Shown here: positions 26,166 to 50,302 of the stretch, piece by piece
Numbering within the stretch: the first letter of the stretch is position 1
How the letters are laid out: the number at the start of each line of letters is the position of its first letter
From: Acetobacteraceae bacterium
GTDB lineage: Bacteria; Pseudomonadota; Alphaproteobacteria; Zavarziniales; Zavarziniaceae
Assembly (NCBI GenBank): GCA_947379865.1
Contig: CANCOY010000001.1
Location: forward strand, 11,724 to 75,723
Direction of reading: 5' to 3'
Length of the DNA stretch: 64,000 bases
Notes under the pieces: generated by a model
The model's database searches: none
Told to the model about the DNA's origin: nothing
What the model saw: the letters and a program-made list of their open reading frames with translations, nothing else
Translations under genes and position numbers: made by a program

Positions 26166-27287
26166 TCATACCCCTGCGCCAGGTGCCCGCGTCGGGGCAT
26201 CCGCATCCTTTTCGGTCAGCAGTCTGAGGAGGGGGGGGTTGATGAAGAGTTTTTCCCGGCCGGCCTTCATTTCCTGCAGAACGCCAATATCGCAAAGGCG
26301 CTTCAGATAGACCGAGGCCGACTGACGGCGGGCAATGCCGGCATCGACCAGGTCAGCGATACGGCAATATGGCTGCACGAACACCATTTCGACGAGCTCA
26401 CGGGAATAAATCCCCGCCGCATCCCGTCGGATGGTTTCGGCCGTCCCGTCGAGCAGGTGGCGGATGGCGGTGATCCTGGCGGTTGTCCAATGCGCGGTCT
26501 CGGTGATGGCGCTAAGCATGTAGAGGACCCATTCTTCCCAGGCGCCGTCGGTGGTGACTTTCAGTAGCAACCGATAATACTCCGCCTTGTGGCGGATGAT
26601 GTAGCGGCTGAGATAGAGCACCGGGATGCTAAGCAGGCCCTTTTCCACTAGAAACAACAGATTCAGCACACGGCCGGTGCGGCCATTGCCATCGGTGAAG
26701 GGATGGATCGCCTCGAACTGATAGTGCATGACGGCCATGCGGATCAGCGGGTCTACGTCTTCAGTTGCATGAATATAGCGCTCCCAGTCAGCGAGTTTGT
26801 CACGCAGAAGCATCTCACCCTCGGGCGGTGTGTAGATCACTGCCCCATCCACATCATTGACGAGGCGGGTGCCGGGTGTGGAACGAATATCAATGGTGCT
26901 GCCCTTGATGGTCTGGCAGATGCGCACCGCCGTCGCCGTCGTCAGGGGCCTCTGGTTCAGCAGTGCGAAGCCTTCATAAAGCGCAACGCGATAGCGCAGA
27001 GCCTCGCGTGTTGCCGGGTCGGCCTGGCTGTTTGCCTCGTTGGCAAAGCGGAACAGCCGGTCGCTGGTGGTGACGATGTTCTCGATCTCGGAACTGGCCT
27101 GGGCTTCCAGCAGTGGAATGCTGTTGATCAGCACCGCCTGATTGGGGATCAGGTCTCCCGCCACCTTGAGTTCTGCAAGCGCAGCCCGGGCCGTGATGCA
27201 GGCCTTGAGGACGGCCCGTGTCTCCACGTCTACCTGCGGCGGCAGGCCAGGCAGGGCATTATAGGGGCGGCTGGGGTCGAACGTCAT
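26166..27287 (-). CDS. fic: Fic-family protein (class II, N-terminal inhibitory helix; probable AMPylase)
   Basis: Met 39 (MTFDPSRPYNALPGLPP...) of ORF 26166..27401. Fic motif HPFTDGNGRTGR. SSEIEN matches the inhibitory (S/T)xxxE(G/N) motif. Confidence 0.85.
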   Translation of the reverse strand: MTFDPSRPYNALPGLPPQVDVETRAVLKACITARAALAELKVAGDLIPNQAVLINSIPLLEAQASSEIENIVTTSDRLFRFANEANSQADPATREALRYRVALYEGFALLNQRPLTTATAVRICQTIKGSTIDIRSTPGTRLVNDVDGAVIYTPPEGEMLLRDKLADWERYIHATEDVDPLIRMAVMHYQFEAIHPFTDGNGRTGRVLNLLFLVEKGLLSIPVLYLSRYIIRHKAEYYRLLLKVTTDGAWEEWVLYMLSAITETAHWTTARITAIRHLLDGTAETIRRDAAGIYSRELVEMVFVQPYCRIADLVDAGIARRQSASVYLKRLCDIGVLQEMKAGREKLFINPPLLRLLTEKDADAPTRAPGAGV

Positions 27288-27288
27288 A

Positions 27289-27491
27289 TGTCGATGAAAC
27301 CCGATAAAATCGACACGTTTCGCAAACGTGTCGATGCCATCGACATGTTTCCAGAACGTGTCGATATTTCCTGATTTTATCGACATGTTGGGTATGAGCA
27401 AGGGGGATTTGGGCCACCCCAGCAGCCTCGTTCATGTCGATGTGATCGACAGATTTGGCGAATATGTCGATTTTTTTGTGTTTTATCGACA
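27289..27491. promoter_or_regulatory. Phased array of ten ATCGACA/TGTCGAT heptamers (operator- or iteron-like) upstream of fic
   Basis: Copies start at 27289, 27309, 27329, 27339, 27359, 27379, 27435, 27445, 27465 and 27485, alternating in orientation. 27309-27335 is a palindrome with perfect 12-nt arms. Confidence 0.8.
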
Positions 27492-27671
27492 TGTCCGAGG
27501 ATGGGCGGTACCGGAGACAAGGAGTTTAGCAGCCGTCAGTTGTGTAATCTGAAGATGTATTTCTCCGTTTAAAAACAGCCATATGTGGTATTTTGGCTGG
27601 ACACAGAAAGCGAGGCGACCTATGTTCTTCCCATGGGCGACGCCCCGGGGTCCTCGTATTGGGGGCCGGAT

Positions 27672-27702
27672 AAAAGGTCCGCTTTGCGGGCCTTTTGTTT
27701 TT
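27672..27702 (+). terminator. Intrinsic terminator-like hairpin (T-runs on both sides)
   Basis: AAGGTCCGC (27674-27682) / GCGGGCCTT (27686-27694) with one G-U pair, followed by TTGTTTTT. Preceded by an A-run, so it could also act on the minus strand. Confidence 0.5.
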
Positions 27703-27725
27703 CAGCCGTCCCCCTCTCCCCTCAC

Positions 27726-27759
27726 AGCAAAACGCCCGCCGGATTGCTCCGGCGGGCGT
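27726..27759 (-). terminator. Intrinsic terminator of the BI-1/YccA-family gene
   Basis: Perfect 11-bp stem ACGCCCGCCGG (27732-27742) / CCGGCGGGCGT (27749-27759). On the minus strand it is followed by TTTGCTG. Confidence 0.6.
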
Positions 27760-27783: not shown

Positions 27784-28533
27784 CTATTCGCGGCGCTGGC
27801 CGAAGAGCTGCATCAACATGATGAACAGGTTGATGAAGTCGAGGTAGAGGGTCAGCGCGCCGGAGATGGCGAGCTTGCCCAGCGAGGCGCTGTCGTAGCT
27901 CTCGCTATAGAGATCCTTGATGCGCTGGGTGTCATAGGCGGTGAGGCCGGCGAAGACCAGCACGCCGATCACCGAAATCGCGAACTGCAGGGCCGAGGAG
28001 GCCAGGAAGATGTTCACGATGGAGGCGACCAGCAGGCCAATGAGGCCCATGATCAGGAACGAGCCAAAGCCCGACAGGCTGCGCTTCGTCGTATAGCCAT
28101 AGAGGCTGAGGCCGCCAAAGGAAGCCGCCGAGATGAAGAACACCCGCGCCACGCTGGCACCCGTGTACTGCAGCAGGATCGAGGCGATGGAGACACCCAT
28201 CACTGCGGCAAAGACCCAGAACACCGCCTGGGCCGTGGCCACCGACATCTTGTGGATGCGCATGCCAAAGAACAGGGCGAGGCCAAGCGGCGCGAACATG
28301 GCGATCATGCCCAGCAGGTTCGGGGCAAAGTGGCCAGGCCGAACCATGGATTCCGCAAAGAACACGTCCCTGAGACCGGTGTTTGCCAGCAGATAGGCGG
28401 AAATGCCGGTCAGCAGCACACCCGACGTCATGTAGTTGTAGACGGACAACATGTGGGACCGCAGGCCCTGATCGAGTTCCGCCTGGGCAGCGCCAGCCCG
28501 ACCGGCCAGGTTGCCCTTGTACATTTCAGCCAT
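27784..28533 (-). CDS. Bax inhibitor-1/YccA family membrane protein
   Basis: 249 aa, seven TM helices. LRSHMLSVYNYMTSGVLLTG and the C-terminal LYLDFINLFIMLMQLFG are typical. Confidence 0.9.
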   Translation of the reverse strand: MAEMYKGNLAGRAGAAQAELDQGLRSHMLSVYNYMTSGVLLTGISAYLLANTGLRDVFFAESMVRPGHFAPNLLGMIAMFAPLGLALFFGMRIHKMSVATAQAVFWVFAAVMGVSIASILLQYTGASVARVFFISAASFGGLSLYGYTTKRSLSGFGSFLIMGLIGLLVASIVNIFLASSALQFAISVIGVLVFAGLTAYDTQRIKDLYSESYDSASLGKLAISGALTLYLDFINLFIMLMQLFGQRRE

Positions 28534-50226: not shown

Positions 50227-50302
50227 GGGGCCGTAGCTCAGTTGGTAGAGCGCCTCGTTCGCAATGAGGAGGTCAGCGGTTCGATTCCGCTCGGCTCCAC
50301 CA
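50227..50302 (+). tRNA. tRNA-Ala (anticodon CGC)
   Basis: Hand-folded cloverleaf. Acceptor GGGGCCG/CGGCTCC with the G3:U70 Ala identity pair, anticodon stem CCTCG/TGAGG, loop TTCGCAA, T-loop TTCGATT, encoded CCA. Confidence 0.9.

Follow-up and report, generated by a model that had tools for sequence, protein, structure and literature searches.

Phased inverted heptamers upstream of a SoFic-type fic gene: a probable operator for self-control

SoFic of Shewanella oneidensis (SO_4266, mloA) is a toxic, widely transferred single-gene anti-phage system, and its DNA-binding domain was only recently shown to bind its own upstream DNA. Dimeric SoFic co-elutes with its own 300-bp upstream DNA, whereas monomeric L31D does not; the 100 bp adjoining the ATG are bound best, and a composition-matched random fragment is left unbound (bioRxiv 10.64898/2026.07.09.737422). 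SoFic AMPylates EF-Tu (bioRxiv 10.64898/2026.07.09.737422). Here we analysed a 64,000-nucleotide stretch of DNA from an Acetobacteraceae bacterium (contig CANCOY010000001.1; this whole stretch is the window), in which ten copies of the heptamer ATCGACA lie directly upstream of a fic gene. We propose, with a probability of roughly 85%, that this array is a multi-site cis-acting operator of fic, bound by the gene's own product for self-control.

Self-repression has been described for CccR of Yersinia pseudotuberculosis, like the window protein a Fic toxin that has its DNA-binding domain at the C terminus. The CccR dimer binds inverted repeats near its own -35 and -10 and represses its own promoter through an inverted repeat, dimerisation being required (PMC9755527). 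The CccR operator is one inverted repeat of 10-bp boxes, AGATAATCAT-N26-ATGATAATCT, whereas the window family has 6-10 heptamers, and CccR, unlike the window Fic, is an effector of a type VI secretion system (PMC9755527). The SoFic member of Escherichia coli is toxic and needs dimerisation. EcSofic, which belongs with the PADLOC SoFic to the same protein family as the window Fic, is paired in one strain with AS1, a 47-amino-acid downstream antitoxin, in a study that did not consider DNA binding or an operator (PMC12249575). Self-binding (SoFic) and self-repression (CccR) are already published, and self-control was expected for the family. Our search of a literature library for the heptamers and AMPylation turned up no account of the half-site, of the phased multi-site architecture, of its promoter placement, of conservation of the array across phyla or of a correspondence between helix and half-site. 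Beyond the published work, this study adds the half-site, its layout relative to promoter and start codon, its near-exclusive linkage to fic and a first helix-to-half-site correspondence.

A mobile, potentially lethal gene with its own operator and a self-encoded DNA binder is also familiar from the controller (C) proteins of restriction-modification systems and from autoregulated type II toxin-antitoxin operators. The likeness of the window locus to these is one of working, not of membership: a host-independent setting of expression is common to them, but here a single polypeptide is both toxin and DNA binder, a separate antitoxin or C gene is missing, and the half-sites are many more. We rejected a type II toxin-antitoxin operator as such, given that no small regulator gene is adjacent and the DNA-binding domain sits within the toxin.

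The fic gene and its heptamer array

The window gene encodes a protein with the domain order Fic_N, Fic and SoFic-like C-terminal winged helix (PF13784, E=9e-25; PF02661, E=1e-15; PF21248, E=2e-32). The PADLOC SoFic model matches residues 10-359 (E=3.7e-119), a phmmer comparison with the SoFic structures 9tch/3eqx covers residues 4-362 (E=3.6e-145), and end-to-end alignment with S. oneidensis SoFic, which has the same domains, gives 59% identity. The catalytic HPFTDGNGR (defined as HPFx(D/E)GN(G/K)R) and the N-terminal inhibitory SSEIEN (defined as (S/T)xxxE(G/N)) are both intact and aligned with their SoFic counterparts. The recognition-helix region of the window Fic, IARRQSASVYLKRL, is nearly the same in both proteins (RRQSASVYLKRL here, KRQTASVYLKQL in SoFic). 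Judged by these comparisons, the window gene is a close orthologue of SoFic, the known single-gene anti-phage system; protection from phage and AMPylation of EF-Tu are known for the E. coli and Shewanella proteins only. A phmmer match to 7xux is far weaker (E = 5.9e-8); we take 7xux, unverified, to be the CccR structure, in which case CccR is only a distant relative.

The gene and the parts of the array are as follows.

26166..27287, minus strand: fic, 373 amino acids, SoFic-type class II Fic AMP-transferase (Pfam, PADLOC, phmmer, alignment)
27289..27385, minus strand: putative operator module A, proximal, six half-sites (starts 27289, 27309, 27329, 27339, 27359, 27379)
27329..27345, no strand assigned: central palindrome TGTCGATgccATCGACA (N3), the most conserved element of the family operator
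27386..27434, minus strand: inter-module spacer with the predicted -35 box (sequence and promoter comparison)
27435..27491, minus strand: putative operator module B, distal, four half-sites (starts 27435, 27445, 27465, 27485), its palindrome 106 bp from the central one

An exact pattern search placed ATCGACA at 27289(-), 27309(+), 27329(-), 27339(+), 27359(-), 27379(+), 27435(-), 27445(+), 27465(-) and 27485(+), with successive spacings of 20, 20, 10, 20, 20, 56, 10, 20 and 20 bp and strict alternation of strand, exactly as had been read from the letters in an earlier note on this DNA. Ten of the 22 heptamer copies in the window are packed into these 203 bp, where about 0.015 would be expected; the other 12 are isolated. 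Shuffled sequence yields 4.76 copies per 64 kb, and none of 100 shuffles got to 22. Aligned in one orientation, the ten sites give a half-site of approximately ATCGACAYRTT, that is, longer than 7 bp. On the fic strand module A reads TGTCGAT-N13-ATCGACA-N13-TGTCGAT-N3-ATCGACA-N13-TGTCGAT-N13-ATCGACA-t-ATG, a six-site layout also present in loci L001, L002, L005, L017, L243 and others.

Several details of the earlier description could be sharpened. The perfect 12-nucleotide arms that it gave for 27309-27335 were recovered by a repeat finder. The two modules are homologous, as it said, but only in part: a 60-nucleotide direct repeat (27329-27388 vs 27435-27494, 75% identity) indicates that module B duplicates, with divergence, only sites 3-6 of module A. 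The placement of all sites within a module on one face of the helix applies to neighbours, which lie nearly so; the period is exactly 10 bp, just under the 10.5-bp repeat of B-DNA, and the array therefore drifts round the helix. The two N3 palindromes, 106 bp apart, are separated by about 10.1 turns. Lastly, the first copy, reported to abut the fic start codon (27287..27285, minus strand), comes close to contact with it, one base intervening (ATCGACAtATG).

Short, repeated and regularly spaced sites also characterise iterons, replication origins, DnaA-box clusters, centromere-like arrays and dispersed mobile repeats, and two of the sites read TTATCGACA, one mismatch from a DnaA box. The sites, however, alternate in orientation, unlike direct repeats; no rep or par gene and no turn in GC skew lies nearby; and the array is always immediately upstream of fic, with only isolated heptamers elsewhere in the window. 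We regard this explanation as having almost no chance of being right, and the 'iteron-like' wording of the earlier note did not hold up on the same grounds of strand alternation, missing rep/par genes and absent skew inflection. Two specific candidates were rejected: a DnaA-box origin, since only 2/10 sites resemble TTATCCACA and the skew has no inflection, and an iteron origin or centromere, for which direct repeats of ~17-22 bp, rep/par genes and an AT-rich element would be expected, whereas here the strand alternates and the neighbours are ABC-transporter and Bax1-I genes.

Linkage of the array to fic and its co-variation with the Fic winged helix

Homologues of the window Fic at 70-91% identity are very numerous, the closest being alphaproteobacterial. 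Three orthologues found by exact protein look-up lie in a prophage tail module, a Mesorhizobium chromosome and a betaproteobacterial island beside nuclease genes, and each of them carries this array, which again ends at the ATG. For a broader view we scanned one genome per species and obtained 80 loci with Fic proteins of 59-73% identity, all evaluable, from Alpha-, Beta- and Gammaproteobacteria, Gemmatimonadota, Cyanobacteria, Verrucomicrobiota, Acidobacteriota, Spirochaetota and Planctomycetota. Using as anchor a TGTCG-N7-CGACA palindrome 40-80 nucleotides before the ATG, with no more than 2 mismatches in its 10 core bases, we found it in 67/80 loci, and in 33 it stands exactly 56 nucleotides before the ATG. 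The upstream alignment of orthologues that the earlier note had proposed as a check showed the array to travel with the gene.

Around the anchor, recurrent half-sites keep fixed positions and orientations relative to the palindrome: at -40 in 51, -20 in 45, 0 in 58, +10 in 48 and +30/31 in 50 of the 67 loci, and at +50, in contact with the ATG, in 21. A second palindrome at -70/-60 occurs in about 10 loci. E. coli, in which 279 of 5,426 complete genomes carry a SoFic-type fic, likewise has a second upstream palindrome, its operators forming two tandem modules as in the window. The six proximal window sites show the canonical family layout at its most perfect. L243, the closest relative (Fic 91% identical), has both modules at the same 106-bp offset, and 69/70 site bases are kept while the spacers diverge; absence of the array from closely related fic loci, which would have spoken against a function, is not what we found.

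The element is also nearly confined to these loci. Across the fetched loci, the arrays contain TGTCG-N7-CGACA 48 times, the 682,559 bp of DNA flanking them just once. We then scanned metagenomes with TGTCGAT-N3-ATCGACA-N13-TGTCGAT, a pattern blind to fic, which returned at least 120 loci. Among the 120 listed, the element is directly 5' of a SoFic-like gene in 64 and directly 3' of fic or beside a winged-helix-only fragment in 17; in 2 further loci fic is present but not adjacent, 11 lack fic with 1.3 kb or more of sequence available on each side, and in 26 the element is too near a contig end to judge. Because these contexts centre on intact or decayed fic, the element marks neither a dispersed repeat nor a broad regulon. 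The possibility of a dispersed genome-wide repeat, raised in the earlier note, is likewise contradicted by the single palindrome in the flanks and the isolation of the other window heptamers.

Some of these metagenome loci show the gene in decay. Intact elements stand beside SoFic genes with internal deletions and frameshifts (L173:5270-5406, L176:9836-10111, L183:1754-1900, L206:12450-12677, all counted above as lacking fic) and beside open reading frames (ORFs) of 70-92 amino acids that comprise the C-terminal winged helix only (L203:4683-4895; L219:5949-6227); one such winged-helix-only ORF follows a small ORF that resembles Doc/Fic by eye. From these sequences, SoFic genes seem often to be lost while the operator persists.

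No other gene is shared among the loci, which leaves the winged helix of Fic itself as the only constant candidate binder. The half-site changes with the recognition helix, and the operator layout stays:

Most loci: helix (K/R)RQ(T/S)A(S/A)-YLK; half-site TGTCGAT
Burkholderiales clade: helix QRQAASRYL; half-site TGTCGC or TGTCGTC
Xanthomonas, Fic 63% identical: helix VTRQTAARHLKEL; CATGTTC-N7-GAACATG
46%-identity homologue: helix ANRQTTAKYIQKL; half-site GAATGTTCAAA, in four copies of alternating orientation that run up to the ATG
44%-identity homologues: helix VSRPTATKYLDEL; half-sites CATGTAAAG/CTTTACATG, overlapping the ATG

In remoter homologues of Fic/winged-helix build (L116:1950-2034, L118:2900-2976, L057:5900-5985 and L071:5890-5970), the layout recurs with half-sites of another sequence (GAATGTTCAAA, CATGTAAAG, CATGTTC-N7-GAACATG). 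It thus looks as if proteins of this architecture generally have self-operators that end at the start codon.

The published binding data concern DNA with the same heptamers. The SoFic probe (Table S2 of bioRxiv 10.64898/2026.07.09.737422) reads ATCGACA-N24-TGTCGAT ... TGTCGAT-N3-ATCGACA-N23-TGTCGAT, and three of its five exact heptamers sit in the best-bound fragment. Like the window, it thus combines ATCGACA/TGTCGAT heptamers with TGTCGAT-N3-ATCGACA; unlike the window, where the spacing is N13, its flanking sites are spaced N23/N24 (three turns), and no site is in contact with the ATG. The part of the probe farthest from the gene (F3) holds a large palindrome unrelated to these sites, GCACGTGTATAGATA...TATCTATACACGTGC, along with more TATAGATA repeats; it may be the site of a different regulator or part of the neighbouring gene.

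Could another trans-acting regulator of the host bind the sites, fic being one member of its regulon? No regulator gene adjoins fic, and the element occurs in some loci and phages where the stretches read showed no SoFic. Yet the array moves with fic across unrelated neighbourhoods and at least eight phyla with no other gene shared, the half-site changes along with the Fic recognition helix, the flanks hold one palindrome in 682,559 bp, and SoFic itself binds DNA carrying these sites. We consider such a regulator very improbable.

Promoter overlap and the proposed self-control

The family profile places a -35 TTGACA directly 5' of the palindrome and a TAnnnT -10 directly 3' of it, so that the palindrome fills the 17-bp spacer; the next half-site falls at the expected transcription start. 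TTGACR-[palindrome]-TAnnnT is found in 31/67 loci at a match of at least 8/12, Shewanella among them, whose fic promoter reads TTTACA-TGTCGATTGAATCGACA-TAAGCT. In beta- and gammaproteobacterial orthologues the palindrome exactly occupies the 17-bp spacer of TTGAC(G/A)...TAnnnT. Alphaproteobacterial orthologues, the window included, have weak palindrome-flanking boxes and share instead TTGCnn-N16/17-TA(T/A)A(A/T)T, in which the distal half-site forms the 3' end of the spacer. A stricter generic promoter scan returned only a minus-strand match inside the gene and a plus-strand match pointing away from fic, and we relied instead on the comparative family profiles. In contrast to Shewanella, the likely window promoter overlaps the distal site:

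27401..27396, minus strand: predicted -35 hexamer TTGCTC (from alphaproteobacterial orthologues)
27379..27374, minus strand: predicted -10 hexamer TAAAAT (same basis; 5/6 to consensus, 16-nucleotide spacer), which abuts and overlaps site 27379-27385

Transcription is predicted to start near 27367, and the predicted 5' untranslated region (UTR) of ~80 nucleotides contains five sites, 5 to 1, of which site 1 stands at the start codon. Overlap of sites and core promoter is clear at the level of the family; in the window it is a prediction. With either promoter, the sites would cover the core promoter and the initiation signals, as in a repressor operator.

We propose the following mechanism. A SoFic-type Fic would dimerise through its N-terminal helix and present its C-terminal winged helices, each of which would read one half-site ATCGACAYRTT. 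Several dimers would fill the inverted half-sites spaced by 10/20 bp, covering the promoter from its spacer and -10 box to the transcription start and, beyond it, the 5' UTR with the start codon; the distal four-site module would add cooperativity or looping. The DNA-binding helices of CccR are 70.2 Å apart (PMC9755527); in the N13 pairs the centre-to-centre distance of 20 bp corresponds to ~68 Å on straight B-DNA, although sequence cannot assign pairs to dimers. In this way a defence gene that is toxic and moves horizontally would keep itself under tight negative autoregulation without a host regulator, and carriage of its own promoter and operator would explain how a lethal gene settles in very different hosts.

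An entirely different role would be in RNA, the inverted repeats forming a leader hairpin of ~80 nucleotides that controls translation or stability. The predicted leader does fold well (-37.7 kcal/mol, z = -4.06 vs shuffles), but of the variant cells in the 67 loci 56-73% disrupt the proposed pairing, and no combination of sites differs from the others, a pattern that copies of one motif, not specific helices, would give. In beta- and gammaproteobacteria, moreover, the predicted start lies downstream of most sites, which would thus go untranscribed. No Rfam family matches: at the gathering threshold the array region gave nothing, and a permissive scan gave only sub-threshold matches (ar14 at 22.9 bits and others). 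With pairings not kept across orthologues we rejected the leader hairpin, which we hold to be very improbable.

The idea of an operator occupied cooperatively by several dimers, with the winged helix of Fic as one possible protein to bind it, was put forward in the earlier note as inference; it is supported by the linkage of array and fic, the near-confinement to fic loci, the family-level overlap with promoter elements and the helix co-variation, and further by published self-binding of SoFic to DNA with the same heptamers and by the footprinting and repression reported for CccR. Several points weigh against self-control. Binding by this particular Fic, and repression as its direction, are what we infer from sequence comparison, and the window promoter TTGCTC-N16-TAAAAT is a prediction of the same kind; the position of the strong beta/gamma promoter reads GAAACA...CGTTTG in the window. 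Because the helix/half-site co-variation consists of few clade-level events that are confounded with phylogeny, it is suggestive, not statistical. The SoFic assay is qualitative (co-elution), defines no motif and left regulation untested (bioRxiv 10.64898/2026.07.09.737422). Finally, the element also occurs beside Fic homologues with a differing helix (L195, L158), and about 16 intergenic viral elements lie in stretches that, as read, hold no SoFic-type gene; both are described below.

Elements in phages, restriction-modification operons and other settings

TGTCGAT-N3-ATCGACA-N13-TGTCGAT, often followed by N13-TTCGACA, occurs exactly in 29 IMG/VR viral contigs (L085-L113), for example at L089:4953-5010, L092:11325-11385, L106:4457-4515 and L108:2744-2780. 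About 4 distinct matches look coding (VDxID codons). The intergenic ones lie in genuine phage DNA beside head, head-closure, tail, sigma-factor and RuvC genes, and in at least 10 loci a co-oriented ORF starts 24-60 nucleotides downstream. In one phage lineage the element lies between a small gene just 3' of the major head protein gene and a gene of 346-349 amino acids that precedes the head-closure gene; there the four sites are invariant while the spacers diverge, which indicates that they are under selection. Searches of the element-bearing phage stretches by tblastn with Fic and with hidden Markov models of the full protein and of its C-terminal domain found no Fic or winged helix, and no PHROG family matches the C-terminal domain alone. 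Scanning viral contigs for the peptides SEIENIV and A[VM][MA]HYQF, which may miss diverged fic, gave 9 contigs, none among the 29; blastn of the phage element region gave no match among cultured phages.

In a fic subfamily of 49-56% identity the element directly follows the stop codon (L143:5096-5182, L192:3678-3714, L128, L157, L198, L207, L211, L234), in L143 as T-N3-A-N13-T-N13-A-N13-T-N3-A. Often fic of this subfamily is part of a type I restriction-modification operon, arranged as hsdM, fic, element, hsdS. The arrangement suggests that the Fic winged helix might control the downstream restriction-modification genes like a controller protein. Neither the phage nor the restriction-modification elements speak against autoregulation, but they do suggest further targets of the winged helix beyond its own promoter.

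These elements also bear on the proposal that the array is a DNA scaffold controlling the enzyme, in which phased sites hold or assemble SoFic dimers and switch EF-Tu between AMPylation and deAMPylation. Release from DNA would then be part of defence activation, and the scaffold could act on top of autoregulation. DNA binding by Coxiella CbFic2 induces dimerisation and turns an AMPylase into a deAMPylase; SoFic AMPylation and EcSofic toxicity need the dimer, and the C-terminal domain modulates toxicity. Ten sites, moreover, seem more than simple repression needs, and element copies are conserved in phage genomes. However, the link between operator DNA and SoFic activity would be drawn by analogy with CbFic2, a single chromosomal array accommodates just a handful of dimers, and repression suffices to explain the overlap of sites with promoter elements. 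Bases 1-50000 of T5, a phage reportedly blocked by SoFic, contain neither the palindrome nor an N13 pair. We judge the scaffold unlikely, if the least unlikely of the alternatives. A little less likely still is that the operator takes part in infection sensing by the SoFic defence or in the way this defence is overcome, with operator DNA titrating or recruiting dimers, or phages using the sites as decoys or sensors; if so, DNA occupancy would couple to fic derepression and to the EF-Tu AMPylation/deAMPylation switch.

Apart from the arrays of SoFic genes, a TGTCGAT-type element lies 110-160 nucleotides from Fic homologues of 27-29% identity with a different winged helix (L195:780-816, L158:7186-7222). 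In L195 the gap between element and Fic homologue holds another palindrome, ATTAAAGATATCTTTAAT. The TGTCGAT-type element at these loci could be what remains of a SoFic gene since lost, or could reflect cross-talk.

In the window itself, fic has ABC-transporter genes and a Bax1-I gene as neighbours, and the ORF list and Pfam annotation give no evident regulator or antitoxin gene adjoining it, in agreement with the earlier note that no regulator gene is adjacent. By inspection, no small gene 3' of fic was convincing, no sequence comparison with AS1 having been made. The only transfer RNA gene found in the window is tRNA-Ala at 50227. G+C content is about 0.58-0.60 in fic, against 0.65-0.70 in its surroundings, and about 0.50-0.60 over fic plus operator (26166-27400), against 0.65-0.72 in the flanking genes; the difference is in keeping with a recent gain by horizontal transfer.

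The gap that separates the array from the end of the upstream Bax1-I gene (27784-28533, minus strand) holds two G+C-rich hairpins with T runs (27672-27703, 27732-27759), which probably insulate fic from read-through; the sub-threshold Rfam match to ar14, an alphaproteobacterial small RNA (22.9 bits vs a gathering score of 58.8), overlaps both. The array also misleads gene finding. A longer, TTG-initiated fic ORF (27401) is an artefact that reads into the array, and ORF finders and public gene calls push fic into it in the same way, yielding spurious N-terminal peptides such as IDTFxKxVD. A large share of the start codons annotated in this family is therefore probably misplaced, and many homologue entries of 381-404 amino acids (P0001, P0003, P0004, others) are probably too long, since gene callers often extend into the array.

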